37,142 bases of DNA, taken from IMG/VR virus record IMGVR_UViG_2737471867_000005, one strand, 5' to 3'. Under the pieces are notes generated by a model, which was not told the origin of the DNA, did not search any database, and was given only the letters and a program-made list of their open reading frames with translations. This DNA is from a virus. Lineage: Duplodnaviria > Heunggongvirae > Uroviricota > Caudoviricetes. Position numbers and translations under genes: made by a program. Positions 268 through 36,089 of the stretch are shown piece after piece. The stretch's first letter is position 1. Every line of letters begins with the position of its first letter.

Positions 268-300
268 AAGCCCTCGCGTTGAGGGCTTTACTGATTTTTT
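268..300 (+). terminator. rho-independent terminator after grxA
   Basis: Hairpin AAGCCCTC-gcgtt-GAGGGCTT followed by a T-run; overlaps the 3' end of convergent ybjM. Confidence 0.6.
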
Positions 301-934: not shown

Positions 935-2620
935 GTGAATATAAACGTCGCCGAATTGTTAAATGGGAATTACATTCTGTTATTATTTGTGGTCCTCGCG
1001 CTTGGGCTATGTCTCGGAAAGTTACGACTTGGTTCGATCCAACTGGGTAATTCCATTGGCGTTTTAGTCGTATCGCTGTTATTAGGCCAACAACATTTCA
1101 GCATTAACACCGATGCGCTTAATCTTGGCTTTATGCTGTTTATTTTCTGCGTCGGGGTCGAAGCCGGACCGAACTTTTTTTCCATTTTTTTTCGCGATGG
1201 GAAAAATTACCTAATGTTAGCACTGGTGATGGTTGGCAGTGCGCTGGTGATCGCCTTAGGGTTAGGTAAGCTGTTTGGCTGGGATATTGGCCTGACGGCC
1301 GGTATGTTAGCAGGCTCTATGACGTCGACACCGGTTCTGGTCGGTGCTGGCGATACACTGCGTCATTCCGGCATGGAAAGCAGGCAGCTCTCACTGGCAC
1401 TGGATAATCTGAGCCTCGGGTATGCCTTAACCTATTTAATCGGTCTGGTGAGTTTGATTGTTGGTGCGCGTTACTTGCCGAAATTGCAGCATCAGGACTT
1501 ACAGACCAGCGCCCAGCAAATCGCCCGCGAACGTGGCCTGGACACTGATGCCAACCGTAAGGTTTATTTACCGGTGATCCGCGCCTATCGCGTCGGCCCG
1601 GAGCTGGTGGCCTGGACCGACGGCAAAAATCTGCGTGAACTGGGTATTTATCGACAAACCGGCTGCTACATTGAACGTATTCGACGTAACGGGATTCTGG
1701 CAAATCCAGACGGTGATGCCGTGCTACAAATGGGCGATGAAATAGCGTTGGTAGGCTATCCCGACGCCCATGCCCGACTCGATCCCAGCTTCCGTAACGG
1801 TAAAGAAGTTTTCGATCGTGACCTTCTCGACATGCGTATCGTCACTGAAGAAGTGGTCGTTAAAAACCATAACGCTGTAGGTAAACGTCTCGCACAACTG
1901 AAGTTGACCGATCACGGTTGCTTCCTTAACCGCGTCATTCGTAGCCAGATTGAGATGCCGATAGATGACAACGTCGTGCTTAACAAAGGTGACGTTTTAC
2001 AAGTCAGCGGTGATGCCCGTCGCGTAAAAACCATCGCCGATCGCATCGGCTTTATCTCGATTCACAGCCAGGTCACTGACCTGCTGGCATTTTGCGCCTT
2101 CTTTGTTATTGGGCTGATGATCGGGATGATCACCTTCCAGTTCAGCACATTCAGTTTCGGCATGGGGAACGCTGCCGGGTTGTTATTCGCCGGAATTATG
2201 CTGGGCTTTATGCGTGCTAACCACCCGACCTTCGGTTACATTCCGCAAGGTGCATTAAGCATGGTGAAAGAGTTCGGCTTGATGGTGTTTATGGCAGGCG
2301 TTGGTCTGAGCGCCGGTAGCGGTATTAATAACGGCCTGGGCGCGATTGGCGGTCAGATGTTGATTGCCGGATTAATTGTCAGTCTTGTGCCCGTGGTTAT
2401 CTGTTTCTTGTTCGGTGCTTATGTATTGCGAATGAACCGCGCACTGTTGTTCGGCGCAATGATGGGCGCACGCACCTGCGCGCCGGCAATGGAGATCATC
2501 AGTGATACAGCTCGCAGTAACATCCCTGCGCTGGGCTATGCGGGCACCTACGCAATCGCCAACGTCCTGCTGACGCTGGCAGGGACAATCATCGTCATGG
2601 TATGGCCAGGATTAGGATAA
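935..2620 (+). CDS. ybjL: putative AAE-family transporter YbjL
   Basis: 561-aa polytopic membrane protein with a central cytoplasmic region; matches E. coli YbjL in length and synteny. Confidence 0.9.
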
Positions 2621-4265: not shown

Positions 4266-4747
4266 GACAGCAGCCCTCCCACCGTTTTACTGATATCGCT
4301 TAAGGCAGATGTTGCCATGTCCTGCAGATTATTCAGCTGCGCACTGAGATCACCAAACATATCGGACAGGGATTCATCCACCCGTTTGAGCGACAGGGTG
4401 AACTCAATCCGGCGCGGCATACCGTCGCGGAAAAACTCCGTTTTGGTCTGATTCAGTCCCTCAATCACATACATGCCATAAACCGTGCCGCTGCCTTCAA
4501 TCAGGGGCCATGCTTTCCCCTGTTCTGCCATCTGCTCCAGTGCCAGCAATGACAGCCTGCCGCCTGTTATCTCCGGCATAAGAACACCAGAAAGCGTCAG
4601 CATGTCGTTATCCGGTCCCAGAAACTGCGTGGATGGACGACGATTTACCCGACTGTTAGCCGCATGTCGCCAGCTGCGCTGATACTGCAGTTCCTGATAC
4701 GGCACGGTGCGCAGCATAAACACGTACAATCCCAGCACCATCATCAT
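4262..4747 (-). CDS. U: tail protein U
   Basis: 161-aa ORF overlapping the D start and T stop, P2 order. Confidence 0.85.
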   Translation of the reverse strand: MMMVLGLYVFMLRTVPYQELQYQRSWRHAANSRVNRRPSTQFLGPDNDMLTLSGVLMPEITGGRLSLLALEQMAEQGKAWPLIEGSGTVYGMYVIEGLNQTKTEFFRDGMPRRIEFTLSLKRVDESLSDMFGDLSAQLNNLQDMATSALSDISKTVGGLLS

Positions 4748-7700
4748 GCGTCGTATCCCCCCTGATCGCTGTAGTTACTCCTGGCTTTTGCCTTCAGCCT
4801 GCGTTCACGTTCATCAAGCTGGCGGGCCACCTCCCGTGCAATATCCTGCGCACTTTGTCCTGGCTGCGTCTGAATGATGATCTGCGTCGGTGCCTCAATC
4901 CGGTGAATGGGCGGCACAGTGGCTGCACGACTCACCATCGCTTCGCCGCCTTTCGCGGGAAGTGCCAAAGGATGCAACGGTGGAAGCTCTGCAGGCGCGG
5001 CAGCAACGCCCATCATTCCGGCAACAACGGCAGCCAGTGCAGCTGTATTTCTCCGGCTGGTCACATTTGCCGGGCCGTTAACAATTTCCGGCCCGTTTTC
5101 ACCGACGATGCCAAACTGCCCGCGCGGGATATAGCCGCCGCTGTCATACATCCCCGCAAAGCCATATCCCCATGACGGAAAACCACCCGATGGCATCATC
5201 ACTTTACCGTCTGCATTCACCGTCGCAGGTTGCTGACGCGTCACTCTTTCCGGCAGTTTCGCCTTTGCAGCCTCTTTACTGACAATGCCGAGTTTCTCCA
5301 GCAACCAGGAAACGCCGGATTTCAGGGAGTCCAGCGGATGCATGACCATATTTAGCCCTTCCGCCAGTGCCTCCCCGAATCGTCGCCCCATTGCCGCTGC
5401 GCTCTGCAGTTCGGCAGAGGTCGACTTAACGGGCGTCAGCAGATCAGTAAACCAGCCCCACAACGCCTGCACTTTGTCGCCAATCCACTGAAACACAGGC
5501 TTAAGCGGTTCGAATGCTGCACTGATGGGACCTGCCGCCGCGTTGAATCCTTCCACCACACCAGCGAGAAATGCGGTGATGGGTTGCCAGTATTTCCAGA
5601 CAACCAGCGCCACGCCCGCCAGTGCAGTAACCACAAGACCTATCGGACTGAGCAGAGCACCTAACAGACCAGATACGGCATACAGGGCAACGCGCAGCAT
5701 CGCCAGCGGACCGGATGCCAGTACTCGCAGCACCGCGCCTGCGGCAGCCAGTCCACCGCGTAGTGCTGCCAGTGGATTCATAAACATCACAGCAACAGCA
5801 CGTAAACCGGATAATCCAGACCGCAACAGTGCAACCGGCACACCTGCTACAGTTTTCAGGACATTCCCCGTCAGTGATGCCGTGCGGCGCAAAGACGACA
5901 ACGGCGCAGTAAGTAAACCCGCTGCGTTGCCCGATGAAGCAAGCCCGCGTCGCAGCAGTGCCAGTGGAGCGCCAGCCAGCCAGGACAACGCGCTGCTGGT
6001 TCGTGTTACTGCTGCCGTAACGGAAGGTAACGTTTTGATACCCAGCACAGAGAATCCCAGACGGATGACTGCCAGCGGCCCCAGCACTGCAGCCAGCGCC
6101 ACCGCTAAGGTGCCGAGGCCTACGGTAACCGCAGCCACAACAGCCGCTACTTTCATCAGTGTGCCTGTCAGTTCCGGGTTAGCTTCCACCCAGCGGCGCA
6201 ACGCCCCCGTGATGCTTTTTACCGTGTACAGAATATCCATCAGCGGCTGGCGCAGCGTTTCGCCCAGGCTGCTGAAGGTGTTCTGCGCTCCGGTTTTGAC
6301 CAGCAACCACTGCGCAGAAAGTGAGTCTTTGTTGATGTCGGATTCTTTCTGCATGGAACCGAGCGCATCATTGCCCGCAGTCAGTTTTAGCTGGCGCTGC
6401 AGTTCCGGAAGGTTGTTTGCCAGTTTCGCCGCGTCATCACCAAACTCTTTACCAAACAACATGGTCATGGCAGACAGACGCTTGTCCTGCGGCAGTGCGT
6501 TCACCTTCTCCAACACACGCTGGATAGTTCCCATCGCATCCTTCGTCATCTGCTTTTCAATCACTTCAGGATTGAGTTTCAGCAGATTCATCCCTTCAAA
6601 GAAACTCTTGCTTTGCATGGTGGCAATGGACAATTCACGCACCATCGCGTTTGCTGCACTGGCTGCAACCTCCGGCGCAGCGCCCAGTGTCAGAAAGGTG
6701 GAACCCAGTGCCGCCGCTTTACGATAATCCAGACGGTCAGCCACACCGCCCAGACGTTGCATCACATCAATGATGTCCGCCCCTTTCGACATGGCGTTAT
6801 CATCCAGATAGTTCAGCGCATCGCCGAGCTGTTCAATATTGCGGGTAGGTATTTTGTAGAGCTGGGCGATTTTCCCCAGACTTTCTGACAGTTCATCCGC
6901 TGGCAGCTCAAAGGCTGTTGCCGCCTTTGCTGCCGTACTGGCGAAGGCCAGCAGGTCACGTTTCTGGTCTTCCCAGCTGTCGTCAGGGTTTGCGACGTTC
7001 ATGCGCGCACCACCTTCAACCAGTGCAGCGAAGTCCACCGCACCGTTTTCCATCGGCAACTGTTCGCTGGCAGCCTTGATGGCATCCTGCATTTCATAAA
7101 AACGTGCAGTGCGGTTGCCATTATCGTCACGCAGACCATTGACCTGCTTTGCCACACCTTTCATGGCATCTTCCATGCTGGTATAGCTTTTTACTGCCGC
7201 CATCACTGGCGCACCCATTGCCAGCCCTGCAGCCGTGGTAGTGGCTCCGGCTCCTGCGATGCGATCGCGCACCTCCAGTGAACGGGCATAACTGGCACGC
7301 GCTGCATTCATCCGGCGCTGAGCTTCCCCCAGTCGCTTCAGCCGCGCCTCCTGTTTCGACAGTTCCTGGTTATAACGTGATGCTTCACGGGCTAAACGGG
7401 CAGTTGCTCCCGCATCATCTTTCGCAGAAATTCCCGCCCGGTACAGTTCTGCACGCACAAGCGCCGTTTGCTGCTGCAGCTTTTTCTGGCGTTCTTCCAG
7501 GCGCTGAACAGCCAGCCGTTGACGGCCCAGAGCAACAACCTGACGTTGCGAAGGCGGCCCCATCGCTCCCAGTTCCTGACTGAGCAAATTTGCACGCTGG
7601 CGGGCATAGTTCAGCCTGTCGCCTAATTTCTGATTTTCTGCCTGCAGCTTTCGGAAGCTGTCCAGACTGCTCCCGGCCTGATCAAGCTGCTTTATTGCAT

Positions 7701-8304: not shown

Positions 8305-8820
8305 TCAGAGGCCGAGGGCGTTGCGGTGCGCTTCCATCAGGTCCACACCGTCCACAATTTCCACCATGTTGATAAGGTCCACTTCATAGAGCACCTCACC
8401 ATTGATGGTCAGCTTCGCGTAGCTGTTGGTACTGGTCACTTTGGTGGTGTTGCTTTCGCCCGTCTTCCACTCGCCGGAATCCACTTCTTTGTGACGTCCA
8501 CGCACGACAAGCTCCACGGCCTGCACTTCCCCGGTATCGTCACGCTGAATAGAGCCGGTAAAGCGCAGCTGGATGCCATCCACCGTGGCTTTACCCATCT
8601 GTTTAAACAGCAGCAATTCAGTACCACCAATGGAAAATTCTGTGTCCAGCGCACTGTCATCAAGCCCCAGATCCACATCCACCGCACCCGGCATTCCGCC
8701 GCCGCGATACTTCTCATATTTGCGGGTAAATTTCGGCAGCGTCAGCGACTCAACGATCCCCTGCCAGTTGTTCCCGTCGTTAAACAGGTTCAGGTGTTTT
8801 AATTTGCGTGGTAAAGCCAT
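8305..8820 (-). CDS. FII: tail tube protein FII
   Basis: 171-aa ORF in P2 order downstream of FI. Confidence 0.88.
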   Translation of the reverse strand: MALPRKLKHLNLFNDGNNWQGIVESLTLPKFTRKYEKYRGGGMPGAVDVDLGLDDSALDTEFSIGGTELLLFKQMGKATVDGIQLRFTGSIQRDDTGEVQAVELVVRGRHKEVDSGEWKTGESNTTKVTSTNSYAKLTINGEVLYEVDLINMVEIVDGVDLMEAHRNALGL

Positions 8821-8829
8821 GTTGTCCCC

Positions 8830-10002
8830 TTACGCGCTGACCTGGCTGGCGAAATTCACCAGGTACTGATCGGTGATGCGCTGACGCAGCATCAGGTTTT
8901 CAAGTGGCGGCACTGGCGTGTAGTCGTAGTCGATGGTGAGTTTTCCGGCTTTCAGCGTGTCTTTGTCGTTCACCGACTCATCCAGCCAGCAATCACCACC
9001 AATGAGATAGCCCTGACTGACCAGGCTGCGCATTTTGGCGCGGATACCTTCGATAATGTCGCGGGCCAGCGACGGGTTAAGCGGTTTATCCACCGCCCAC
9101 ATGTGTGCTTCTGCCATCGTGTCCATCAGCACCTGCGCCGTGCGGGTGTAGTTTTCGAAGGCAAAGAGCGGGTCATCACTCAGGCAGCGGGAACCCCAGA
9201 AGCGGAAACCGTCTTTACGCACAAGCGTGGTGACGTCGTTCTGGTTCAGCAGACCTGCATCGGTTGCCGGGTCCTGCAGATCCCAGAACACATCTGCAGA
9301 AATTCCGGTGACACCGTTCACGCCCACGTTGGACAGGCTTTTGTGCCATCCGGTCTGCTCGTCAATTTTGGCGCGCAGACCAAGCGCACGGGCGGTGGCA
9401 TATGCCGTTGCTTCGGCATTCAGCACCGTGTCCCAGCCAGTAAAGTCAGGCCAGATCAGCATCCCTTCGCGCTGGCTGAAGTTTTCGCGGTAAGTGATCG
9501 CCTCCTGCACTGTCTTGCAGCCATACGCTGACAGGTAAGCAAATCCACGCAGGCTTTGCGCCACGCTCAGCAACTCAGTAGCTACCGCCTTGGTGTCGTG
9601 GCCTGGCACGCCGAGAATGCGCGGTTTAACGCCGAGCTGTGACTGGGCAGATAACAGGGCTTTCATACCTGTTTTTTTACCTTCAGCAGTCACTGCGCCG
9701 ATGATATTGGTCGTGGTTTCGTCTTCCGTTTCACCCTGCGGCACACGCACAACAATGGTCACGGGTTTTGCCTGGTCAGCGATGGCATCCAGCGAACGGG
9801 CCAGAGTACCTGACTCACCCGCTTTACCGCTGGCAGTCAGCACATCAGTGATCAGCACGGGTTTATTAAGAGGAAACATTTTTGCATCGGCATCATCGCC
9901 CGTGCAGACCATACCCACGATGGCGGTGCTCACCGTGGTAATAGATCGGGTGCCTTCGTTGACTTCAACAACGCGCACCCCGTGGTGGTAATCCTGAGCC
10001 AT
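8830..10002 (-). CDS. FI: contractile tail sheath protein FI
   Basis: 390-aa ORF, P2 order. Confidence 0.9.
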
Positions 10003-10078
10003 AGTGGCGAACCTCCTGATTGGATTAGGCTTCGCCCTATGTTGAAGTGATTGTGCCTGACAAACAGCTAAGCGCAGT

Positions 10079-10096
10079 TGTGTCGTTATTCACACA
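10079..10096 (-). promoter_or_regulatory. Ogr-type late promoter activator site (TGT-N12-ACA) upstream of FI
   Basis: TGTgtcgttattcacACA dyad lies 77 bp upstream of the FI start. Confidence 0.6.
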
Positions 10097-10144
10097 AAAT
10101 AACGGTATTTGTCTGCTTGCAGTGATAATCAACATAATGCTGAT

Positions 10145-10717
10145 TCAGGGGGATTCATTGATCTTATTTGCCGGAAATTTTCTATAAATGGTAGAAACGC
10201 CTACATCAAAAATCAGTGCAATACGCTGTCTTGATTCTCCGGCCTCGAGTAAACGCCCAATCTGTGCCCACTGTTCGGTGGTCAACTTAGGACGGCGTCC
10301 ACCTACTCTGCCTTTGGCACGAGCTGCAGCCAGCCCTGCCCTGGTACGTTCAACTATCAGTTCGCGTTCCATTTCAGCCATGGCACCCATGACATGAAAA
10401 AAGAAACGGCCCATTGGGGTACTGGTATCAATACTGTCAGTCAGGCTTCTGAAATTCACACCACGCTGGCGCAACTCTTCTATCAGCGTAACAAGATGCC
10501 GCATACTGCGCCCCAACCTGTCCAGCTTCCAGACAACCAGCGTGTCTCCTGCCGATAGTGTCCTGAGTAGTTTTTTCAGCCCCGGTCTGTCGGACTTAGT
10601 GCCACTGATTTTGTCCTCAAAAATCTGCTCACATCCCGCGCAGTTCAGTGCATTACGTTGCAAATCGGTGTTCTGGTCATTTGTTGACACGCGTACATAG
10701 CCAATAAGTATGATCAT
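10145..10717 (-). CDS. serine DNA invertase (Gin/Pin/Cin/Hin family)
   Basis: 190-aa protein with N-terminal IGYVRVSTNDQ catalytic-serine motif and a C-terminal HTH; adjacent to inverted tail-fibre segments. Confidence 0.9.
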   Translation of the reverse strand: MIILIGYVRVSTNDQNTDLQRNALNCAGCEQIFEDKISGTKSDRPGLKKLLRTLSAGDTLVVWKLDRLGRSMRHLVTLIEELRQRGVNFRSLTDSIDTSTPMGRFFFHVMGAMAEMERELIVERTRAGLAAARAKGRVGGRRPKLTTEQWAQIGRLLEAGESRQRIALIFDVGVSTIYRKFPANKINESP

Positions 10718-20828: not shown

Positions 20829-21662
20829 TCAGCAATTGGTCAGAGTGTCAGCGGGGGCGTTACCGCCTGTTGCACGCTGGCGGTAGTCCTGGCGGCTGTC
20901 TTCATGACTCAGCTTGTCCACCAGTTCGTTAAAGGCGGTTTGCTGTGCCTGCAGGGCAGTCTCCAGCTCAGACAGGCGTTCTTCCTGCTCAGACAGGGAT
21001 TTTTCGGTGCGTGCGCTCAGGTTCTGCTGCTCAGTGGCGACCAGCTCCACGGCCTTATGCACATCAGAGAACCGGGCGTCATCGGACTGCTCTTTTTTGG
21101 TAAACAGCGCCGTGACGCGGGCAAACAGGGACGGTTTGTCGTCCTGGACTTCTTCCAGTTCGATCACCGTTTCCTCTGCGGCAGTAAAGAGATTGGCGGG
21201 ATTCTGCTTGCGGTTTGCCAGCGGGTTATGGGCTGCACTGGCGCTGAATGTCAGCATTTCAGTGCCCAGACTGGCAGGGTCATCAGTGGCAGCCAGGCCG
21301 ACCAGGTAGGCTTTGCCCGTATCAGCGAACTTCGGGCTGACTTCCATAGAGGTGAATAATTTCTGGCCTTTTTTCACCAGTTCCACCAGGGACTCCGTTG
21401 GCTCAACGTCAGCATACAGCGCCATCTTGCCTGCCAGCGGACCTTCCGTGATTTCTTCAGCAAACAGCGCCGTCACCTTGCCGTAGCGGTTAAAGGTGCT
21501 GTCCGGCAGATAAGACTTGATGTGCTCAAGGTTAATCAGCGCGGTATACACCGCCGGGTTATAGCTGGCTGCCATCTGTTCCAGCCATTCACGCTGGATT
21601 TCGCGTCCGTCGGTGGTGGCACCTTCCACCCCTATGCGAAAACGCTTTGCTTTCACTGTCAT
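20829..21662 (-). CDS. O: capsid scaffolding protein O
   Basis: 277-aa ORF with a coiled-coil C-terminal half. Confidence 0.88.
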   Translation of the reverse strand: MTVKAKRFRIGVEGATTDGREIQREWLEQMAASYNPAVYTALINLEHIKSYLPDSTFNRYGKVTALFAEEITEGPLAGKMALYADVEPTESLVELVKKGQKLFTSMEVSPKFADTGKAYLVGLAATDDPASLGTEMLTFSASAAHNPLANRKQNPANLFTAAEETVIELEEVQDDKPSLFARVTALFTKKEQSDDARFSDVHKAVELVATEQQNLSARTEKSLSEQEERLSELETALQAQQTAFNELVDKLSHEDSRQDYRQRATGGNAPADTLTNC

Positions 21663-21740
21663 GAGCCGTGCTCCGTTAGAAAAAACTTACTGGAGCCTTA
21701 TGGTTGCGGTGATGGGGGCAGTGAAACAATGCGCGGTATT

Positions 21741-21758
21741 TGTACCGACAACCACACA
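21741..21758. promoter_or_regulatory. Ogr-type late promoter site (TGT-N12-ACA) in the divergent O/P control region
   Basis: TGTaccgacaaccacACA, 47 bp upstream of the P start codon. Confidence 0.65.
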
Positions 21759-21804
21759 AACCGCAGGCGGGGAAAGCCTTCATTCAAGGCTGTAGGTTTG
21801 TGCC

Positions 21805-23571
21805 ATGAACACCACACTGACACCCGCAGATCTCGATCCCCGTCGGCAGGCCATGCTGCTGTACTTTCAGGGATACCGCGTAGCCCGCATTGCTGAAATG
21901 CTGGGCGAGAAAGTTGCAACCGTTCACAGCTGGAAAAAACGCGACAAGTGGGGTGACTATGGGCCGCTGGATCAGATGCAGCTCACCACCGCCGCACGCT
22001 ACTGCCAGCTCATTATGAAGGAGCACAAAGAAGGGAAAGATTTCAAAGAGATTGACCTGCTGGCGCGCCAGTCGGAGCGCCATGCGCGGATCGGCAAGTT
22101 TAACAATGGCGGCAACGAAGCCGACTTAAACCCTAACGTCGCCAACCGCAACAAAGGCCCACGCCGTCAGCCGGAAAAGAACGTTTTCACCGATGAACAG
22201 ATTGAGAAGCTGGAAGAAATTTTCCATTCCTCCATGTTCAACTACCAGCGCCACTGGTGGGAAGCCGGAAAAACCAACCGCATCCGCAACCTGCTGAAGT
22301 CACGCCAGATCGGCGCGACCTTTTACTTTGCCCGTGAAGCCCTGATTGACGCCCTGCTTACCGGACGTAACCAGATTTTCCTTTCCGCCAGTAAGGCACA
22401 GGCCCACGTCTTTAAACAGTACATCATCGACTTCGCCAAAGAAGTAGAGGTGGAGCTGAAAGGCGATCCGATGGTGCTTCCCAACGGGGCCACACTGTAT
22501 TTCCTCGGCACCAATGCCCGCACGGCCCAGAGTTATCACGGCAACCTGTATCTGGATGAATATTTCTGGATACCGAAATTTCAGGAGCTGCGCAAAGTGG
22601 CTTCCGGTATGGCTATTCACAAAAAATGGCGACAAACCTATTTTTCCACGCCATCCAGTCTGACACACAGTGCTTATCCGTTCTGGTCCGGTGCGCTGTT
22701 CAACCGTGGGCGCAACAAAGCCGATAAGGTGGACATCGACCTGTCCCACAGCAATCTGGCCCCCGGCCTGCTGTGCGCAGACGGGCAATACCGCCAGATA
22801 GTCACCGTGGAAGATGCGGTACGCGGCGGCTGTAACCTGTTCGACCTCGACCAGCTACGCATGGAGTACAGCCCGGATGAATACCAGAACCTGCTGATGT
22901 GCGAGTTTGTGGACGATCTCGCGTCCGTGTTTCCGCTCAGCGAGCTGCAGGCGTGCATGGTGGACAGTTGGGAAGTCTGGACCGACTTTCATGCACTGGC
23001 GCTGCGCCCGTTTGGCTGGCGCGAAGTGTGGATCGGTTATGACCCGGCAAAAGGCACGCAAAACGGCGACAGCGCCGGATGCGTGGTGGTGGCACCGCCA
23101 GCCGTGCCGGGTGGTAAGTTCCGCATTCTTGAGCGTCACCAGTGGCGCGGGATGGACTTCCGCGCCCAGGCTGACGCCATCAAAAAACTGACCGAACAGT
23201 ACAACGTGACCTATATCGGTATCGACTCAACCGGCGTTGGTCACGGGGTTTACGAGAACGTGAAAGCGTTTTTTCCTGCCGTCCGGGAGTTTGTCTACAA
23301 CCCCAACGTTAAAAACGCCCTGGTACTCAAGGCCTACGACATTATCAGCCACCGCCGTCTGGAGTTTGACGCCGGACACACCGACATAGCGCAGTCCTTT
23401 ATGGCAATCCGTCGCGCCACCACCGCCAGTGGCAACCGCCCGACCTATGAAGCCAGCCGCAGCGAAGAAGCCAGCCACGCCGATCTGGCCTGGGCAACGA
23501 TGCACGCACTGTTTAACGAACCGCTGCAGGGCGAATCCGCCAATACCAGCAATATTGTGGAGATTTTTTGA
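21805..23571 (+). CDS. P: terminase large (ATPase) subunit P
   Basis: 588-aa ORF. Confidence 0.9.
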   Translation: MNTTLTPADLDPRRQAMLLYFQGYRVARIAEMLGEKVATVHSWKKRDKWGDYGPLDQMQLTTAARYCQLIMKEHKEGKDFKEIDLLARQSERHARIGKFNNGGNEADLNPNVANRNKGPRRQPEKNVFTDEQIEKLEEIFHSSMFNYQRHWWEAGKTNRIRNLLKSRQIGATFYFAREALIDALLTGRNQIFLSASKAQAHVFKQYIIDFAKEVEVELKGDPMVLPNGATLYFLGTNARTAQSYHGNLYLDEYFWIPKFQELRKVASGMAIHKKWRQTYFSTPSSLTHSAYPFWSGALFNRGRNKADKVDIDLSHSNLAPGLLCADGQYRQIVTVEDAVRGGCNLFDLDQLRMEYSPDEYQNLLMCEFVDDLASVFPLSELQACMVDSWEVWTDFHALALRPFGWREVWIGYDPAKGTQNGDSAGCVVVAPPAVPGGKFRILERHQWRGMDFRAQADAIKKLTEQYNVTYIGIDSTGVGHGVYENVKAFFPAVREFVYNPNVKNALVLKAYDIISHRRLEFDAGHTDIAQSFMAIRRATTASGNRPTYEASRSEEASHADLAWATMHALFNEPLQGESANTSNIVEIF

Positions 23572-24599
23572 TGGGAAAGAGTAAGAAGAACCGCGCTGCG
23601 GCGACGAAACAGATCCAGCTTAAAAGTCAAACTACAGCCGAAGCATTCAGCTTCGGCGATCCCGTTCCTGTTCTGGACCGCCGAGAACTGCTGGATTATG
23701 TGGAATGCGTACAGATGGACCGCTGGTATGAGCCGCCCGTCAGCTTTGACGGACTGGCGCGCACCTTCCGCGCTGCCGTGCATCATAGTTCCCCGATTGC
23801 AGTAAAGTGCAACATTCTGACCAGCACCTACATCCCTCACCCGCTGCTCAGCCAGCAGGCTTTTTCGCGTTTTGTTCAGGACTATCTGGTATTTGGTAAC
23901 GCCTACCTGGAGAAACGCACGAACCGCTTCGGTGAAGTTATCGCCCTTGAACCTGCCCTGGCAAAATACACCCGACGCGGGTTAGACCTGGATACCTACT
24001 GGTTTGTGCAATACGGTATGACCACGCAGCCATATCAGTTCACGAAAGGCAGCATCTTTCATCTGATGGAACCGGACATCAACCAGGAGATCTACGGCCT
24101 GCCCGGTTATCTTTCTGCCATTCCGTCAGCCCTGCTCAACGAGTCCGCCACGCTGTTCCGCCGAAAGTATTACATTAACGGCAGTCATGCTGGCTTCATC
24201 ATGTACATGACCGATGCCGCGCAGAACCAGGAGGACGTGAACAACCTCCGCAATGCGATGAAAAGCGCCAAAGGCCCTGGCAACTTCCGCAACCTGTTTA
24301 TGTACTCGCCTAACGGCAAAAAGGACGGGCTTCAGATTATTCCTCTGTCAGAAGTCGCGGCAAAGGATGAATTTTTGAATATCAAGAACGTGAGCCGGGA
24401 TGACATGATGGCAGCACACCGAGTGCCGCCGCAAATGATGGGGATAATACCGAATAATGTTGGGGGATTTGGGGATGTGGAGAAGGCTAGTAAGGTTTTT
24501 ATGCGTAATGAATTGATACCGCTACAAAACAGAATAGAAGAACTCAATAAATGGCTCAAAGATGACATAATAAAATTCATGCCATACAGTTTCATATAA
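23568..24599 (+). CDS. Q: portal protein Q
   Basis: 343-aa ORF; the last ~50 codons change to AT-rich codon usage. Confidence 0.88.
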   Translation: MMGKSKKNRAAATKQIQLKSQTTAEAFSFGDPVPVLDRRELLDYVECVQMDRWYEPPVSFDGLARTFRAAVHHSSPIAVKCNILTSTYIPHPLLSQQAFSRFVQDYLVFGNAYLEKRTNRFGEVIALEPALAKYTRRGLDLDTYWFVQYGMTTQPYQFTKGSIFHLMEPDINQEIYGLPGYLSAIPSALLNESATLFRRKYYINGSHAGFIMYMTDAAQNQEDVNNLRNAMKSAKGPGNFRNLFMYSPNGKKDGLQIIPLSEVAAKDEFLNIKNVSRDDMMAAHRVPPQMMGIIPNNVGGFGDVEKASKVFMRNELIPLQNRIEELNKWLKDDIIKFMPYSFI

Positions 24600-24630: not shown

Positions 24631-26304
24631 TTAAGATTTATGGCTAAAGAGTATACCTGTAACAGAACGTTGATAGGCATCAAGCTTCTCTTGCCTCTGC
24701 TTAAATTTAGATTTGATATCACTAATACTCGGAATACCTATTACTCCAAGGCCTGCACTTAACGCCGCTAAAGTAGTATTGCCAGTCAGCGCTCCAGCAA
24801 TTGCTATAGCACCATTTGCGATACATGGTAGGACATCCAGTCCGTAAATTCTCAATTTCTCTTTTTGGGCTTTTGCAAGAATCCTTTGATGTTCAATAAA
24901 AGCCCGGTCTACATTATCAATTACTTTTTGCGTTGTCCTCGAAAAGCTCTCTGCCGAAGAATTGATTAAAGAGTCAACACCATTTGATAAGATGGATCTT
25001 ACATCCTCCATCAATTTGTTACGTCTCAACTCAATTATTTTATTGACCGGTACATTTCCTAACCATGAAAAACCATCTTGCATACCAGCAGATAACGCAT
25101 GAACCATATGCAAATTTTTTAGTTCAATATCATTGACATCAAAATTAAGAGATTCGTACTCAATAAGCCAAGTATAATAGAGCCAAGATGTGTCTGCATT
25201 TATATATGGAGTACTACCAAGTTCTTGTGCATTACATTTTGCTGAATAGGCTTGCGGCATTCTTCCAATGCAGGAAAGGAAAACCTCCATTCCAGCATAA
25301 TCACCAACAACATTACGTGATATTCTTTTTTTATCAGATAGTAGTTTTTCTAATTGAGTTTTTGGATTTAGCCCCCATGCTGTATCAAAAATAAGTCTAT
25401 CTGCTCTCTTAATATTTTTAAGAACAGCATCAATATCATTCATCGAATAACTAAAATCTTGAAATTCATCGTAGCTTTCGAACCGTCGATCATAGAGATA
25501 TTGCGCATGAGTCAGAGCATAAGGCTCACAAAAACTCATCAAATTTTTTTTGCTCTCAGTTTCAAAATCTCTTCTATCCGGCAAAATTAATACTATTGCT
25601 GGCTCTATATCTTCAAGCGCTACTTCTTTATATGTCATACATGTTAGGACATGCTTCAGAAGTATCCTTGTAAACTCAGCCTTATCTGACTTTTCATAGA
25701 GACGACCGACTCTTAATATAGGACATGGAAGTGAAATAGTATCAACATACAACCCTGCAATAGAGACAGCATTCTCATCAAATGCAGGAAATAAGTCACC
25801 AGAAAAATTAGCTTTAAACTGAGAACCATCCTGCAAATGTATTACACCAATATCGGATGTTACCTGCCAAAACTCTATTACCTGATTATATAACTCAGGA
25901 AAAATACCTTCTATTTGCTTAACATATTCTTCTTGTTGAGAAAAAAAACTTGATGCTTTATGTGGCGTTGCATTAGTTTTTTTCATCAGATAAAACAACT
26001 CGCCAAAATTACTAAAAAGAATATTAAAGTAAGAACTTTGCAAGTCCTGAATAGAGTATTTGTTTTTTATATCTTCTCTTTCTAAAAAGTGATTAACCGC
26101 TGCTCCCATAGCCCTTATTCTGCCATCAACAGTAGAAGGGTCAACTTTACCATCCTGTCGCAGACTTATTCTTTTAAAACTTTCAATAAAACCTTCTACA
26201 AGATGATGAGCTATTTTTAGTTTTCCCGCTTCCAGTTGTTGCTTAATGAGAAAAACACGCTCAGTTAAATCGTCTACATATTCCTCATCTTGATATTTTT
26301 CCAT
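24631..26304 (-). CDS. uncharacterised 557-aa accessory protein with C-terminal glycine-zipper membrane segment
   Basis: Long AT-rich ORF with a GGAG RBS. C-terminal GAIAIAGALTG...LSAGLGVIGIP is hydrophobic and Gly-rich; no motif I can assign. Confidence 0.75.
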   Translation of the reverse strand: MEKYQDEEYVDDLTERVFLIKQQLEAGKLKIAHHLVEGFIESFKRISLRQDGKVDPSTVDGRIRAMGAAVNHFLEREDIKNKYSIQDLQSSYFNILFSNFGELFYLMKKTNATPHKASSFFSQQEEYVKQIEGIFPELYNQVIEFWQVTSDIGVIHLQDGSQFKANFSGDLFPAFDENAVSIAGLYVDTISLPCPILRVGRLYEKSDKAEFTRILLKHVLTCMTYKEVALEDIEPAIVLILPDRRDFETESKKNLMSFCEPYALTHAQYLYDRRFESYDEFQDFSYSMNDIDAVLKNIKRADRLIFDTAWGLNPKTQLEKLLSDKKRISRNVVGDYAGMEVFLSCIGRMPQAYSAKCNAQELGSTPYINADTSWLYYTWLIEYESLNFDVNDIELKNLHMVHALSAGMQDGFSWLGNVPVNKIIELRRNKLMEDVRSILSNGVDSLINSSAESFSRTTQKVIDNVDRAFIEHQRILAKAQKEKLRIYGLDVLPCIANGAIAIAGALTGNTTLAALSAGLGVIGIPSISDIKSKFKQRQEKLDAYQRSVTGILFSHKS

Positions 26305-26624: not shown

Positions 26625-27794
26625 TTACCAATCCATGTTTGCGGCATTATCCATCTCACGAGTTAAGTAATTAACAAATAAGTCCATATTCCTTTCTGAT
26701 TTCATCGCCTCCGCATAGGTTCCATTAGTTACGTAAGATAGTATTAAAGGACATCCAGATTCAATATAAATTTTTGCTGGGGACAGTTCTCCCTGCCACA
26801 AATTTTCAAGGAAATCGTTAATTAATTGCATTGCTTCAGGTGCCAAAAAATGCACACCATTTCCAAACTTGAAACGTTCTTTATTTTCTCGATGAGGCAG
26901 CAATAGTGGCACAGCCCCTACACTTGAGTGAAATTCCAATGCTTGCCCATCCTTACCGAAGGCGCCATGGGCTACAAAATTACGCACCTGTTTTCTGAGT
27001 ATAAGTAAACGATCATAGAACAATTTTAGGCTGGAAGAGTTAATATCAATGGCTAATTTGAATTTCTCCCCCCATTCTTTTCCAACTTTATCAGCCACAT
27101 CATTCCCATTTTTTATCTCACCCTTCAAGATTGCAATAAGAATGAAAACATGCTCGGTCCAATTGAAAAATGACTCAATTGCAGACGTTGCTAACCACAT
27201 AGCCTCTCTTCGGAGTTCAATTATCTTATTTGATTGTTCAAAAGTGGATTGTAACAGGCTGAAAAAATTATCAGACTTAAACTCACTATCAACTTCCAGT
27301 TTAGACTCTTGGCCAGCAGCAACTTCATCAAGCTTCTGTTTATATAGCTCTAAAAAATAGCAAAACCTATCATAAAGAGAATTAGCATTGTTATTAACAT
27401 TTAGATTTGAAGTCTTTGCTGCATTGTCTGCAAGCGAATCAAAAAAATTCGTAGCAGCTTTAACCCCTGCGCAAATATGTCTCAAAACAGTTTTAGCTTG
27501 CTCTATATCATCATCACTCTTGATAAATATATCTAAACCAAGTTTACGATGTTCTATAATTACGACAGTCCCATCAATCCGGACTGGGATAGAAAAAGAA
27601 ATCTTCTCATCAACCCCACGATTTTTAAATTTCAGTAAATCTACCAAAAGAAAATAAACGAGATAATACGGAGGTAATGAGTCTCCCAAACCCGAGCGCT
27701 TACCCCAAAAATATTCATCAAGCTCGGCAGACTCCATTGTCCCTATGACTCTTCGGACGCGTTCTTCAACTTTAGCCAGATCCATTCCCCACAC
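26625..27794 (-). CDS. uncharacterised 389-aa accessory protein with HEPN-like R-x4-H motif
   Basis: AT-rich ORF; RNFVAH motif at plus 26967..26984. Start uncertain (GTG at 27794 or ATG at 27785). Confidence 0.7.
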   Translation of the reverse strand: MWGMDLAKVEERVRRVIGTMESAELDEYFWGKRSGLGDSLPPYYLVYFLLVDLLKFKNRGVDEKISFSIPVRIDGTVVIIEHRKLGLDIFIKSDDDIEQAKTVLRHICAGVKAATNFFDSLADNAAKTSNLNVNNNANSLYDRFCYFLELYKQKLDEVAAGQESKLEVDSEFKSDNFFSLLQSTFEQSNKIIELRREAMWLATSAIESFFNWTEHVFILIAILKGEIKNGNDVADKVGKEWGEKFKLAIDINSSSLKLFYDRLLILRKQVRNFVAHGAFGKDGQALEFHSSVGAVPLLLPHRENKERFKFGNGVHFLAPEAMQLINDFLENLWQGELSPAKIYIESGCPLILSYVTNGTYAEAMKSERNMDLFVNYLTREMDNAANMDW

Positions 27795-28297: not shown

Positions 28298-30712
28298 TTA
28301 ATACAGGTTCCGCCACTTATCATCTTCCCACAAACGCTGGTTCCGATAGAAGATACGCAAGCCTGCTCCTGACGGAATACTGCCGCCGCGAAGGAGTAAA
28401 TCGACCTCTTTCTCGCTGCCATCAAATCCTCTGGACTTCAGCTCATAGACGAGCTGCAGTCGCTGATGGTCTGTAATTCGCTGTTTGTAGTCTTTACGCC
28501 GTTTCGGTTTAACCAGGCGTAACCTTGCTGCCAGATCCCGGCGCTCTTTTTTGCTCATACTGTGCAGGTAATCGTGCAACTCCTTGTCATCCATGCGGGT
28601 AATGTCCGTTCTGGTGTCCCCATCAGCTGATTTATCTTTCTCCTGTTGGTTCAAATTTTCAGCAAGGGGACAGTTATTGCCACGAGTCCAAGGGGCGCAA
28701 GCGCCCTGGTCGGCTGCCGCCTCCTGAACGTCAACGGCTTTACGAACCATTTTCCACTTCACTGCATGAGTGCAGATCTTGCCCTCTGCAATGGGTGACC
28801 AGATGCCATAAATACGAATGCCGTGATCGCCATAGGCGGTCGGCTCTTCGTTGATTTCATAAGCGGTTCTGATGAGGTGATATTTACGGGGAACCAGTAC
28901 GCCGCCCTGCTTCATGATGTAGGTGGCAAAACAACCAGCATCAGCAGCAGCCAAGATGGCATCAAGGCGCGGGTTATCCAGTACCGGCGCACCTGCTTTT
29001 TTGTCCCCCTGTTGCCTTGCCGCCTGACCAGCCAGCAATCGCAGTTCACGGTAAGCCTGACGCCCCGGAATGCCAAAGAAGCGGAATTGCTGAACACGAT
29101 GCAAAGACGCCCAGGCGTTCACGTATTCAGCGTTATCACGCAGAGATTTACCCGTTTCCTTGCTGATCTCGCCAGCCAGACCACGCCCGTCAATGTTCTT
29201 ACTGATGTATTTCGCTATGTAGCTTGTCGGCGTTCCTTTGCGCGGGTTAATCAGCTCAGACTTAAAGCGCGGCCCCGTGTTATTGCCCAGCTCCTCGCGG
29301 TCTTCACGGATAGCAAACTTACGCAACAATGCAGTAATGGCGCGGCGGTCTTTTTTGCGCATGAAACACAACAGGTGCCAGTGAACTGTGCCGTCGTGAT
29401 GCGGCTCAGCCACCCGCACGCCATACCAGCGCAACCCGGCTTTGTGCATCGCCTTACGAAATGCAGCAAACATACCGACCAGATAATCGCTGCTTTGTCT
29501 TACCGTCGCATTTGTCCAGGTCGGGTTGGGCCTGCCGTTATTTAGCGTGGAATGGAAACGTGACGGACAGGTGATGGTGTAGAAAACGGCGCAGTCACCG
29601 CGCATTTCCGCGATAAGCTCCAGACCTTTAACACAGGCCATCATCTCATTGCGGCGATGCGCAGGGTTGCTGCTGCTGGCGTTTACCACATCCTCCATGT
29701 CCAGCGTGTCGCCGTCTTCGTTCACCAGTTCATGAGAACGGAAAAACTCCAGCGACTTACGGTGCTGCTCACGTTTATGCAACACGGCTTCATAGCTGAC
29801 ATAGGGAGATGCTTTTTTGCTGACAAGGCAGACAGCACGCAACTGCTCTTCCCGCCATTCGCAACGCATCTTCCATAATTTCCGATACCACCAGTCGGCG
29901 CACAACATACGCGCCAGCGAACCCGGAATGAGTTCATAGGGCACGGGTTTACGGCGGTTTCTTTTCCGACGGAGTTGCTCAAACGCAGGCGGGATGACAT
30001 CCAGACGCAGGGTTTCCGCTGCCACCCTTTCCCATGTATTGCGGATTTCTTCTGGCTTAACGTCATCGGTGGCATACAAATCGCCACAAGCGGCATCAAG
30101 GCACATACTCATATGCGCAGCTACCAGGGTGGACAGGCGTTTCACCTGATCCTGACTCATTTCAGGCAGGATCAGCAGGCCGTCCAGCCCTTCATGGCTT
30201 GCCATAAAGCGAAAAGATGCAGATAGCTGACTGTCGCGTACATGCTCCAGTCGTTCCAGACATGGCTTAATCGTCTCACGTAAATAGCGGGAATAAGCCT
30301 TTGGCCTGCCCAGGCTGCTGAAGTATTCAATACGTTGCATCAGCGGCTTGCTGATATGGGAAGGCTGGGCGTTGACGTCCGCCAGAATGACCATATCCGG
30401 ATTAAAACGCTGCTGCTCATGCGCCAGCTTTGCCCGACTAATGAGCTTATCCTGTTCCATTTCGCGCTGGACAGGATCACGGGATTCATTAAAGAAATAA
30501 CGCTCCCAGACCTGATCACTCAGCGCCTCACGGCGCAGCTGTTCCTGCTCGTTATCGGCAGCGTACAGAGTGATCAGGTTTGAAAGCGTAGAAACCGGCG
30601 CAACTTCCACCGTGTCCAGATAAGGGTTAATGGCCTTTTTCGGGCTGTTCCATGAGAACGATGCGGCGACCTCGTTAAAGCCGCTGCAGTTGTTCATATC
30701 AGCATGGCTCAT
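28298..30712 (-). CDS. A: rolling-circle replication initiator A
   Basis: 804-aa ORF in the P2 gene A position. Confidence 0.85.
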
Positions 30713-33617: not shown

Positions 33618-33712
33618 GATGCAACATCTCCTATTGGCTTGTGGTGAGCCTGTAGTAATCGTGACAAGTACCCAAATGGGGACAAAACTGATACTAGGAT
33701 CGCAAAAGAGAT
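33618..33712. promoter_or_regulatory. lysis/lysogeny switch region (186-type pR/pL promoters and operators)
   Basis: 95-bp gap between divergent apl and cI start codons. Confidence 0.5.
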
Positions 33713-34309
33713 ATGTCAACATCAAAGTACCCAAGTGAGATCAAAATAAATCCCAATAAAGGTGGTAAGGCTGCGATTGAGCGATTAGTCGAAGCTTATG
33801 GCTTTACGACACGACAGGCTTTAGCTGATCACTTGGAAGTATCAAAAAGCACTCTGGCGAACAGGTATTTGCGGGATACGTTTCCTGCAGACTGGATAAT
33901 CCAATGTGCTCTTGAAACAGGAACCTCACTGAAATGGTTAACCACCGGGCAAGGACTTAAGCAAAGCTCGCTGACAGTAGCCACAGAAGAGCTTCCCAAG
34001 TTTCGCCTTACCGCAGGCAAAATGATTGAAGATGGTTCATATGTCTTCGATTCATCATTTCTTCCTGCAAATCTTTCATCACCAATTGTTATTCTGGATG
34101 GGCTTGTCACATACATTTGTGATCAAAAATTTTCTGAAGTACTTGATGGGCACTGGTTAATCAACATCGACGGAACCTATTCCATTCGAAAAATCACAAA
34201 GCTTCCAAAAGGTATGATTAAAATTACAACTACAGAGAATAGCTTTGAATGTGCATTTTCTGATATTGAAGTGGTTGCTTGTATAAGAAGTACAATAGTT
34301 TCAAATTGA
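33713..34309 (+). CDS. cI: CI immunity repressor (phage 186 type)
   Basis: 198-aa protein with an N-terminal HTH; position and sequence are 186 CI-like. Confidence 0.85.
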   Translation: MSTSKYPSEIKINPNKGGKAAIERLVEAYGFTTRQALADHLEVSKSTLANRYLRDTFPADWIIQCALETGTSLKWLTTGQGLKQSSLTVATEELPKFRLTAGKMIEDGSYVFDSSFLPANLSSPIVILDGLVTYICDQKFSEVLDGHWLINIDGTYSIRKITKLPKGMIKITTTENSFECAFSDIEVVACIRSTIVSN

Positions 34310-34329
34310 TATAGTAAAAGGATTTAAAA

Positions 34330-36006
34330 ATGAATTCATTTTCCATCGTTATATTCTTATTAGCATTTCTCGCCCCTGTTCTAGCTATAATATTATTTAA
34401 GCAAAGTAAAGAACACAAAACCGCCATAGATAACCTGACGGCTAACAACATAGCTCTTTCCAGCCAACTGAAAGAAAATCAAGAAGAATTAGCACAGACT
34501 GTACGAGATCTATCAGAGCTTGAAGGACGAGCTGCACCATTATGGCAATACGTAGAATTGCACAGCGCAGTGATGGAAGCAGAGAATAAGATAAAAAATG
34601 CAGACTCAATAGCCAGGCAAAAAATAGAAGAAGCCCAAATAAAGGCTGCTAAGACAGTAAACGAAGCAAATTATCAAGCTCAGATAACAATAAGCAACGC
34701 TAATAGCGAAGCTATAGCAATCACCAAAGACGCTCGCGATGCACGCCTGAAAGCCAAAGAACGTCTTGATAATGCCAACAGTAAAGCAAATGAGCTGATC
34801 TCAAATGCTAATGACAACGCAGTAAAAATTATTTCCGATGCAGAAGAAAGAGCAAAAGAGATTGCTGGTTCAGCATATGAAGCTAAAGAGTTTGCAGAAA
34901 AATATGAAGCAGTTGCCAAATCAATGAAAAATAAAATTGAAGGTTATGGCGATGAATGGATCATCCCTAACCGTAGTGTACTTGATGAATTGGCAGAAAA
35001 TTATGAGTTTACAGATGCAGGCAAGGAATTACAAAAAGCCAGGGAGTTAACAAAATCATTAATAAAAACTAATAAAGCAGCTTCGTGTGATTATGTTGAG
35101 CCAAACAGGCGTAATACTGCTATCAACTTTGTTTTGGATGCCTTCAATGGAAGAGTTGACAGTATTTTATCAAAAGTCAAACACAACAATTTTGGAAAAC
35201 TTTCCCAAGAAATAAAAGATGCATTTCAACTTGTAAATTATAATGGCTCTGCTTTTAAATCCGCAAAAATAAGTGACATCTATCTTCAGGCACGACTCAA
35301 CGAGCTAAAATGGGGAGTTGCAGTTAATGAAATTATGCTCAAAGAAAAAGAGGAGCAAAGAAGGATTAAAGAACAGCTTCGTGAAGAGGAAAGAGCTCGT
35401 AGAGAGTATGAAAAAGCGATAAAAGAAGCCGAAAAAGAAGAGAAAGCTATTCAGCAAGCTATAAATAAAGCGACGAAAGAGCTTATGCTTGCAAATGAAG
35501 AACAACGCTTAGCTTTAGAGCAAAAAATAGCTGAACTACAGTTAAAATATGAAGAAGCTGAAGCTAAAAACCAACGAGCTATTTCTATGGCTCAACAAAC
35601 TAGATCAGGCCATGTTTATATAATTAGCAATATTGGCTCATTTGGCGAAGATGTATATAAAATTGGAATGACACGCCGCCTTGAACCACTTGATCGTGTT
35701 CGTGAACTTGGGGATGCTAGTGTTCCTTTTTCGTTCGATGTTCATGCGATGATTTATAGTGATGATGCACCGTCATTAGAAAATCATCTGCATAAAGTCT
35801 TCAACGAAAAGCAGGTCAATAAAATTAACTCACGAAAAGAGTTTTTTAACGTAAATATTAAAGAAATTAAATCGGTTATTGAAGATATGAACATCAATGC
35901 CCACTGGACAATGTTTGCAGAGGCGAAAGAATATAGAGAGTCACTAGCTATTGAGCAGGAACGCAAAGCAGCCACTTCCGCCAACGATGAACTACATGTT
36001 GCTTAG
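34330..36006 (+). CDS. membrane-anchored coiled-coil protein with C-terminal T5orf172/GIY-YIG-like domain
   Basis: N-terminal TM helix (FSIVIFLLAFLAPVLAIILF), a long K/E/A-rich coiled coil, and a C-terminal GHVYIISN...YKIGMT motif from about 35608. AT-rich; inserted between cI and int. Confidence 0.8.
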   Translation: MNSFSIVIFLLAFLAPVLAIILFKQSKEHKTAIDNLTANNIALSSQLKENQEELAQTVRDLSELEGRAAPLWQYVELHSAVMEAENKIKNADSIARQKIEEAQIKAAKTVNEANYQAQITISNANSEAIAITKDARDARLKAKERLDNANSKANELISNANDNAVKIISDAEERAKEIAGSAYEAKEFAEKYEAVAKSMKNKIEGYGDEWIIPNRSVLDELAENYEFTDAGKELQKARELTKSLIKTNKAASCDYVEPNRRNTAINFVLDAFNGRVDSILSKVKHNNFGKLSQEIKDAFQLVNYNGSAFKSAKISDIYLQARLNELKWGVAVNEIMLKEKEEQRRIKEQLREEERARREYEKAIKEAEKEEKAIQQAINKATKELMLANEEQRLALEQKIAELQLKYEEAEAKNQRAISMAQQTRSGHVYIISNIGSFGEDVYKIGMTRRLEPLDRVRELGDASVPFSFDVHAMIYSDDAPSLENHLHKVFNEKQVNKINSRKEFFNVNIKEIKSVIEDMNINAHWTMFAEAKEYRESLAIEQERKAATSANDELHVA

Positions 36007-36064
36007 CAATGTATGTTTCATAGCAATCACACATTGATTACTGGTTGTATATACAGTTAAATTT

Positions 36065-36089
36065 AGCCCTCTGATATGAGGGCTTTTTT
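36065..36089 (+). terminator. hairpin plus T-run immediately upstream of the int start codon
   Basis: AGCCCTC-tgatat-GAGGGCT followed by TTTTT then ATG; the 3' stem arm contains the likely int Shine-Dalgarno (GAGG). Confidence 0.6.

Follow-up and report, generated by a model that had tools for sequence, protein, structure and literature searches.

A functional selection in Escherichia coli uncovered PD-λ-1 (strain ECOR26, RCP76574.1; Vassallo et al. 2022 Nat Microbiol, PMC9519451), and later work on its mechanism gave it the name SNIPE (bioRxiv 2025; Saxton et al., Nature 2026;653:861, PMC13190303). The prototype RCP76574.1 has 500 amino acids (aa), with DUF4041 at residues 197-252 and T5orf172 at residues 357-448. 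Its partners are ManYZ and the tape-measure protein, the latter being bound, like DNA, by its DUF4041 domain, and it cleaves λ DNA during injection, DNA already in the cell being spared; defense is direct, and infected cells survive (PMC13190303). In the same study, defense was lost with the E414A change or the deletion of DUF4041, the protein lacking its transmembrane (TM) helix was highly toxic and cut the chromosome, and the W257R change raised defense against Bas14 (PMC13190303). Across the published family the nuclease is conserved, DUF4041 moderately so, and the N-terminal "adapter" is hypervariable (PMC13190303). A family criterion is an N-terminal membrane-targeting element, which takes the form of a single TM helix in the prototype and 59% of homologues. 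Here, we describe a gene at positions 34330 to 36006 of IMG/VR record IMGVR_UViG_2737471867_000005 (the window, 37,142 nucleotides [nt]), which lies between the repressor gene cI and the integrase gene int of a 186-like prophage. Judged by its sequence, it is a divergent copy of SNIPE (PD-λ-1), a known family.

The identification was carried by several models. The PADLOC PD-Lambda-1 model PDLC03976 matched residues 103-550 over model positions 33-481 of 491 (449 positions) at 2.2e-119, and a second PD-Lambda-1 model, PDLC03977, matched at 3.6e-116. PHROG 1847 matched the 558-aa protein at 3e-132. In Pfam, DUF4041 (PF13250) was found at residues 267-322 (3.1e-12; 46.6 bits against a gathering cut-off of 27), and T5orf172 at residues 427-520 (1e-16) and MUG113 at residues 443-520 (2e-19) both scored above their gathering thresholds. 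All sequence and structure hallmarks of the SNIPE family open to testing were found, namely, the profile match, DUF4041, a nuclease with its catalytic Glu, an N-terminal membrane element, and a single-gene arrangement. For the last of these, SNIPE was the sole cargo between cI and int in 18 of 20 loci, the other two adding an unrelated 309-aa gene. The system is already discovered, named, mechanistically explained, and recognized by standard annotation tools; newer RefSeq annotation names some copies "SNIPE associated domain-containing protein". Homologues are spread over many bacterial lineages (3,369 representative clusters).

The initial annotation had proposed an AT-rich 558-aa gene between cI and int with an N-terminal TM helix, about 350 residues of coiled coil, and a C-terminal T5orf172-type, GIY-YIG-like domain, and most of this description was borne out. 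The ATG-initiated open reading frame (ORF) has exactly the coordinates given there, and its GC content is 0.373, compared with 0.400 for cI, 0.486 for int, and 0.509 for the prophage. Residues 4-23 have a Kyte-Doolittle 19-residue mean of 2.99 and were modeled as a helix by AlphaFold2 (AF2), as expected of the proposed TM segment; an N-terminal hydrophobic segment was present in 62 of 68 diverse homologues. T5orf172 and DUF4041, the two Pfam families suggested beforehand, both matched, and the C-terminal region formed an α/β domain in AF2. The coiled coil stood only in part. The AF2 model, built on a 70-sequence alignment (mean predicted local distance difference test [pLDDT] score, 82.6), comprised, in order, a helix (residues 2-203), a globular helical domain (~217-306), a second helix (316-422), the α/β domain (427-526), and a C-terminal helix. 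Long helices were therefore present, but their ~290 residues came in two pieces with the globular DUF4041 domain (pLDDT, 85-94) between them, and heptad analysis did not support a canonical coiled coil for residues 26-203 and 316-422. A significant amphipathic period was found only in residues 95-203 (~3.6 residues, p<0.001, period scan); it is hendecad-like, as in ATPase stalk subunits, and this part of the stalk resembles ATPase-stalk or DivIVA helices. Among PDB sequences, a profile search retrieved helical or TM look-alikes (ATP synthase b, for example) but no relative of solved structure.

The nuclease domain has the features of the GIY-YIG superfamily, that is, an α/β fold with a three-stranded sheet and conserved Tyr, Tyr/Gly, Arg, Glu, and Asn. 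Y430, G436, G439, G446, T448, E459, F469, E484, N497, and F506 were invariant, and R449, R450, R456, and H472 were at least 90% conserved; these residues correspond to the GIY...YIG...R...E...N motif set. Among the 68 diverse homologues, identity to the window protein fell from 63% in the nuclease to 45% in DUF4041 and 15-22% in the N-terminal region, which matches the published SNIPE pattern of a hypervariable N-terminal adapter. The mean identity of the second long helix across the family was 46%. A 477-aa TM-less form (P0112, a 164-member database cluster starting at M82; L163:215-1648 and L164:189-1622) was considered as a natural variant without the TM helix and was rejected as an artefact of contigs whose start falls inside the gene, since the gene begins ~200 nt from the contig start.

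For direct comparison, the prototype was represented by a 500-aa protein from E. coli MP1 (L161:4984-6486), which has all nine residues named in the SNIPE paper. Each is a prophage-borne, single-gene system, and in both the parts run from a TM anchor and a helical stalk through DUF4041 and a long helix to the GIY-YIG nuclease. Over the C-terminal 293 residues (residues 265-555 of the window protein), identity to the prototype was 50% (BLASTP; E, 1e-76), and the nuclease core was nearly identical (GHVYIISNIGSFGE.VYKIGMTRRL...DAPSLE). The catalytic Glu was kept, with E484 aligning to E414 of the prototype. In contrast, the window protein has 558 aa rather than 500 and a stalk that is ~70 residues longer, and the genomic settings differ: the prototype-like copy of E. 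coli MP1 lies in a lambdoid prophage between nin-region genes and ren, whereas the window copy occupies the cI-int slot of a 186-like myovirus prophage. At the E. coli MP1 locus (L161:4984-8393), the 500-aa SNIPE is encoded on the opposite strand, with nin-region genes on one side and ren/P on the other, and a 515-aa HD-domain gene directly after it is possibly a second defense gene in a lambdoid moron slot.

For expression, the most economical reading is that SNIPE is cotranscribed with cI in the lysogen, which we infer from the 20-nt spacer, the gene's own ribosome binding site (RBS; Shine-Dalgarno AAAGGA 8 nt upstream of the ATG), the lack of an intervening terminator, the hairpin and U-run after the gene, and the pL/pE operon paradigm of phage 186. 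The scan of the spacer found no promoter-like or terminator-like site. The best σ70-like match in the region was on the minus strand at 33691-33719 (TTGACA-17-TAGTAT, 10/12); it points leftward from the cI start to the apl/cII side, the expected place of a pR-equivalent lytic promoter.

An 83-bp block (36007-36089) between the SNIPE stop codon and int was conserved across every cargo class found at this position. It ends in a hairpin (36065-36084, AGCCCTC-TGATAT-GAGGGCT) and a T6 run abutting the int ATG. The hairpin folded at -13.3 kcal/mol (z, -3.0) as individual folds, which were used because the RNAalifold consensus was poor, two stem variants being offset by one base in the alignment. Stem variants in relatives still pair, the substitutions being compensatory (C-G to U-A) or of the G·U kind. 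The int Shine-Dalgarno sequence is likely GAGGG in the 3' arm, and the hairpin could act as a terminator of the cI-cargo transcript, as a mask on int translation, or as both. No counterpart of the block exists in phage 186, because cI and int abut there. The block also carries an inverted repeat, ATGTATG-N14-CATACAT, just past the cargo stop, and in relatives a near-palindrome, TTGAC(C)ACTGGTCAA.

As a whole, the locus is likely best explained as a SNIPE membrane-anchored nuclease that defends the lysogen by cutting phage DNA during injection, which supports the lysogen-protective function proposed in the initial annotation. By analogy with the prototype experiments, SNIPE would sit in the inner membrane of the lysogen, with DUF4041 and the nuclease domain in the cytoplasm away from the chromosome. 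From the gene anatomy, the lysogenic promoter or promoters would drive cI and SNIPE together, so that SNIPE would be constitutive in lysogens. On genome injection by a superinfecting phage with a long tail (probably a siphovirus), DUF4041 would engage the tape-measure protein and the DNA at the entry site. The nuclease would then cut the incoming DNA and the cell would survive, that is, direct defense rather than abortive infection. The membrane partner and phage range may differ from those of the prototype, because the N-terminal ~260 residues are unrelated to it.

Several observations weigh against a simple transfer of this mechanism. No BLASTP similarity to the prototype was found across the first ~260 residues of the window protein, and overall identity in the multiple alignment was 35%; the ManYZ association and phage range of the prototype are, for both reasons, not transferable to the 558-aa subfamily. 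Several DUF4041 specificity positions are also changed (E223→S292, N250→Q320, W257→K327, K305→Q375, and T319→N389, prototype to window protein). The function proposed for the 558-aa subfamily is drawn entirely from experiments on the prototype, the membrane topology is the one predicted from hydropathy, and expression in the lysogen is deduced from the gene arrangement and the 186 paradigm; the consensus scan found no plus-strand promoter for either cI or SNIPE. A further proposal is that the 558-aa subfamily is functionally distinct, with an adapter (residues 1-260) and an altered DUF4041 directed at entry machinery and phages other than those of the ManYZ/λ-type prototype, tied to one cI allele as a cotranscribed and coexchanged module of immunity and entry nuclease, and housed in an under-described hotspot with new defense cargo (among it the c2 and c1 pair, c4, c29, c56, c67, and a 63-aa lipoprotein-like ORF). 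We regard this combined proposal as possible, and put it forward tentatively.

The unrelated N-terminal region, through which regulation could differ, also bears on whether the protein might act as an abortive-infection effector, a toxic nuclease released or activated on infection that degrades host and phage DNA and kills the cell. The prototype without its TM anchor is indeed highly toxic and cuts the chromosome. However, the intact prototype defends directly, with survival of the cell and phage DNA already inside left untouched, and the TM anchor and overall architecture recur in the window protein and in 62 of 68 homologues. Abortive infection is thus unlikely, and entry-stage cleavage by SNIPE is preferred.

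The distribution of the gene was surveyed in loci anchored on the integrase (77 from GTDB species genomes and 80 from IMG/VR), in which CI, SNIPE, and int were located by tblastn. Phage 186 (NC_001317) does have neighboring cI and int genes, as presumed at the outset: cI (22433-23011) meets int (21423-22433) without a gap, both being part of a single operon that is annotated as lysogenic, with pL and pE as its promoters. Distant relatives, with int 50-55% identical, had a 186-like adjacent state with a CI-int gap of 32-34 bp. Among 82 loci with int at least 99% identical, the CI-int distance was of SNIPE size (~1,780 bp) in 13 and ~410-420 bp in 42, the remaining loci having 1,090-2,670 bp. 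The SNIPE gene is accessory. The initial annotation had named presence in all relatives, as a core phage function, as the outcome that would count against its reading; the gene was found in only 13 of these 82 loci.

The ORFs in the gap clustered into more than 20 unrelated cargo families, all codirectional with cI and int, and seven cargo representatives matched PADLOC defense models at E≤1e-30. The cargo included P2 Old (9e-235), HEC-01 (2e-208), PDC-S20 KAP NTPases (1e-171 and 9e-83), PDC-M11A (7e-136), AbiU/AIPR (6e-127), PDC-M18A/B, an AriA/OLD-like ATPase, and a Swt1-type HEPN protein. The cI-int slot is therefore a defense hotspot, with SNIPE as one alternative occupant. Several cargo families had no Pfam or PADLOC match (Table 1), and by their position these genes are candidate new defense genes. 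Within the 410-420 bp gap of the commonest relatives (L003:6621-6812, plus strand, and ~42 other loci) lies a 63-aa ORF, which has a strong RBS (GGGAGG) and whose N terminus resembles a signal peptide or lipobox (MLGKVFFVVLSCSLLL...). Neither Pfam nor PADLOC matched it, and its product may be a small protein of the envelope or of superinfection exclusion.

This distribution also bears on a phage-intrinsic role in the lysogenic operon, such as int control, prophage maintenance, or envelope remodeling, which the position of the gene inside what is the lysogenic operon in 186 might suggest. Such a role is very improbable, as the gene is missing from 186 and from most prophages with int at least 99% identical, and close homologues occur at an unrelated position in a lambdoid prophage and across many bacterial lineages.

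In E. coli, Klebsiella, Citrobacter, Salmonella, and Enterobacter, SNIPE is a common cargo gene of 186-like prophages. The full-length gene was present in 165 of 5,426 complete E. coli genomes (~3%) at 90-99.9% nucleotide identity. The closest genome was E. coli J3 (NZ_CP195984; 99.9%), whose prophage adjoins rcdA/ybjJ, and the closest phage records were Klebsiella phage KP12 and Escherichia phage vB_EcoM-813R9. KP12 is filed under Vequintavirinae despite the P2/186-like sequence of the clone. In one Enterobacteriaceae genome (L008), two SNIPE genes flank the integrase: one of 565 aa (4266-5963) occupies the cI-int slot and is followed by an unknown 309-aa gene (5981-6910), and one of 558 aa (8536-10212) lies just beyond int, probably within an older remnant at the same attachment site.

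The cargo in this slot moves together with most of cI. All 20 SNIPE loci shared CI type 1 (a cluster at 80% identity or more), every locus of this type had SNIPE, and the identity of their int ranged from 78% to 100%. Breakpoints were compared between window positions 33720-36031 and six loci (L003, L115, L135, L139, L109, and L150). Nucleotide homology to same-int relatives with other cargo ended at ~33,720-33,954, at the cI start or in its 5' (helix-turn-helix) part, and returned at 36,007-36,031, directly past the SNIPE stop codon. Because homology breaks in cI and after the cargo stop, the exchanged unit is most of cI plus the cargo. The same cargo (for example, PDC-S20, c4, and PDC-M11A) also occurs with several CI types, so the cI-cargo linkage is broken over longer timescales.

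In Klebsiella pneumoniae (L165-L168; gene at 5001-6677), an 82%-identical orthologue was still paired with cI in a decayed prophage remnant, which fits host selection on the cI-SNIPE pair. The remnant lies at the same chromosomal site, beside TetR (rcdA-like) and MFS genes. Its integrase is split into fragments, PIN_12 and unknown genes stand in place of its lytic genes, and the opposite strand carries a DUF559/MTES_1575 gene. In the collection, 105 blocks index the orthologous protein.

The same breakpoints speak to a selfish origin, in which a homing-type GIY-YIG/T5orf172 endonuclease would have spread itself into the cI-int gap at no benefit to the lysogen. Constant pairing with one cI type and breakpoints in cI and the pre-int block point to module recombination, not site-specific homing, and many unrelated non-nuclease defense genes use the same slot. 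In addition, the protein has a TM anchor and DUF4041, the Pfam search found no NUMOD/IENR-type DNA-binding module, and the PD-Lambda-1 model was matched over 449 positions. Homing is accordingly highly unlikely as an explanation, and defense by SNIPE remains the preferred one.

Finally, a structural "chromosome segregation ATPase" or "V-type ATPase subunit H", as named in OM835953.1, ON470620.1, and Joint Genome Institute records ("vacuolar-type H+-ATPase subunit H"), is scarcely credible: these misleading names arise because the helical stalk compositionally resembles ATPase stalks, and the weak coiled-coil similarity to SMC, V-ATPase E, and ATP synthase b is far below curated cut-offs and confined to the stalk (SMC_prok_A, 15.5 bits against a cut-off of 729, helical segment 319-431 only; NCBIfam, sub-threshold matches to DivIVA_Wag31 at 1.8e-5, SMC, and V-ATPase E, which do not indicate family membership), with no P-loop or ATPase domain in the Pfam search.

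The features of the locus are collected in Table 1.

Table 1. Features of the SNIPE locus in the window, and cargo without Pfam or PADLOC match in the same slot of related loci
Feature	Location	Strand	Basis
186-type CI immunity repressor, 198 aa	33713..34309	+	Pfam Phage_CI_repr 8.4e-32, Phage_CI_C 2.9e-27
cI-SNIPE spacer, 20 nt, with RBS	34310..34329	+	Sequence; promoter/terminator scan
SNIPE / PD-λ-1 family gene, 558 aa	34330..36006	+	PADLOC, PHROG, prototype alignment
Predicted N-terminal transmembrane anchor, residues 4-23, FSIVIFLLAFLAPVLAIILF	34339..34398	+	Hydropathy, AF2 helix
Long N-terminal helix/stalk, residues 24-203	34399..34938	+	AF2, periodicity
Globular helical DUF4041/"SNIPE" domain, residues ~204-315	34939..35274	+	Pfam PF13250 core 267-322, AF2
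Second long helix, residues 316-422, joining DUF4041 to the nuclease domain	35275..35595	+	AF2
GIY-YIG / T5orf172 nuclease domain, residues 427-526	35608..35907	+	Pfam, alignments
Codon GAA for E484, counterpart of prototype catalytic E414	35779..35781	+	Alignments; codon checked
Conserved backbone block, 83 bp, right edge of cargo slot	36007..36089	+	Common to all cargo classes
Tyrosine integrase, 350 aa	36090..37142	+	Pfam Int_N 3e-32, Phage_integrase 7e-22
Cargo pair c2 (350 aa) and c1 (226 aa), Klebsiella phage 4LV2017; c1 ORF unannotated there	L002:2268-4000		No Pfam or PADLOC match
Cargo c4 (355 aa, coiled-coil-like)	L154:4094-5161		No Pfam or PADLOC match
Cargo c29 (493 aa)	L016:5448-6929		No Pfam or PADLOC match
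Cargo c56 (395 aa)	L046:5739-6926		No Pfam or PADLOC match
Cargo c67 (468 aa)	L040:4970-6376		No Pfam or PADLOC match

The window closes with the int stop codon. At the left end, positions 1-2700 are host chromosome, with ybjM (288-665, minus strand) and a ybjL-type Asp-Al_Ex/TrkA_C permease gene (935-2620, plus strand); in E. coli J3, the int side continues into a small hypothetical gene and then rcdA/ybjJ. The classic P2 defense hotspot between portal gene Q (23568-24599) and replication endonuclease gene A (28298-30712) holds two AT-rich genes on the minus strand (24631-26304 and 26625-27794; 557 and 389 aa; GC, 0.35 and 0.38). Neither had a Pfam match, and the sole PADLOC match was a weak DitB-like one to the first gene (1.6e-10); both are candidate uncharacterized defense cargo.

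As reported previously, a cI-int defense hotspot exists in Vibrio K139-like P2-related prophages (Rousset et al. 2022, PMC9122126), and a minor "integrase-primase" hotspot was described in P2-like prophages (NAR 2026, PMC13586616). These share with the present slot a variable position between immunity repressor and integrase that holds known and candidate defense systems. Unlike the Vibrio K139-like hotspot, the present slot lies in enterobacterial 186-like prophages; its cargo is exchanged with most of cI, and its right bound is the conserved block of 83 bp, whose terminal hairpin covers the int RBS. SNIPE in the slot, cI-cargo coexchange, and the pre-int hairpin are not mentioned in PMC9122126, PMC13586616, or the SNIPE paper (PMC13190303), and a Commun Biol 2026 article on P2-like virus diversity is silent on hotspots and defense. 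These three observations are incremental points.

Among GIY-YIG nucleases (Slx1, I-TevI, the UvrC N-terminal domain, R.Eco29kI, and PD-T4-3), the window protein is set apart by its T5orf172/MUG113 sub-branch and by the fusion of a membrane anchor and DUF4041 that defines SNIPE; sequence identity to Slx1 was 13-14%. Like SNIPE, the superinfection-exclusion and defense systems HK97 gp15, Zorya, and Kiwa have the inner membrane as their site of action and genome entry as their stage, and HK97 gp15 is, in addition, prophage-encoded and tape-measure dependent. However, none of the three is related to SNIPE in sequence; they stop entry or respond to a perturbed envelope, whereas SNIPE uses its own nuclease domain to cleave DNA as it comes in.

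The principle of SNIPE (Nature 2026) is that self and non-self are told apart by location, DNA being cut only while it crosses the membrane. In a lysogen of the present prophage, phages of its own type would meet repressor immunity, and other phages a nuclease that acts at entry. The carrier itself belongs to the myoviruses, a class that the prototype SNIPE does not target, and the wholly different N-terminal adapter of the window protein makes it a natural comparison for the determinants of SNIPE specificity. The finding is also relevant to the prediction of host range for phage therapy in Klebsiella and E. coli, where records keep the "chromosome segregation ATPase" mislabel.

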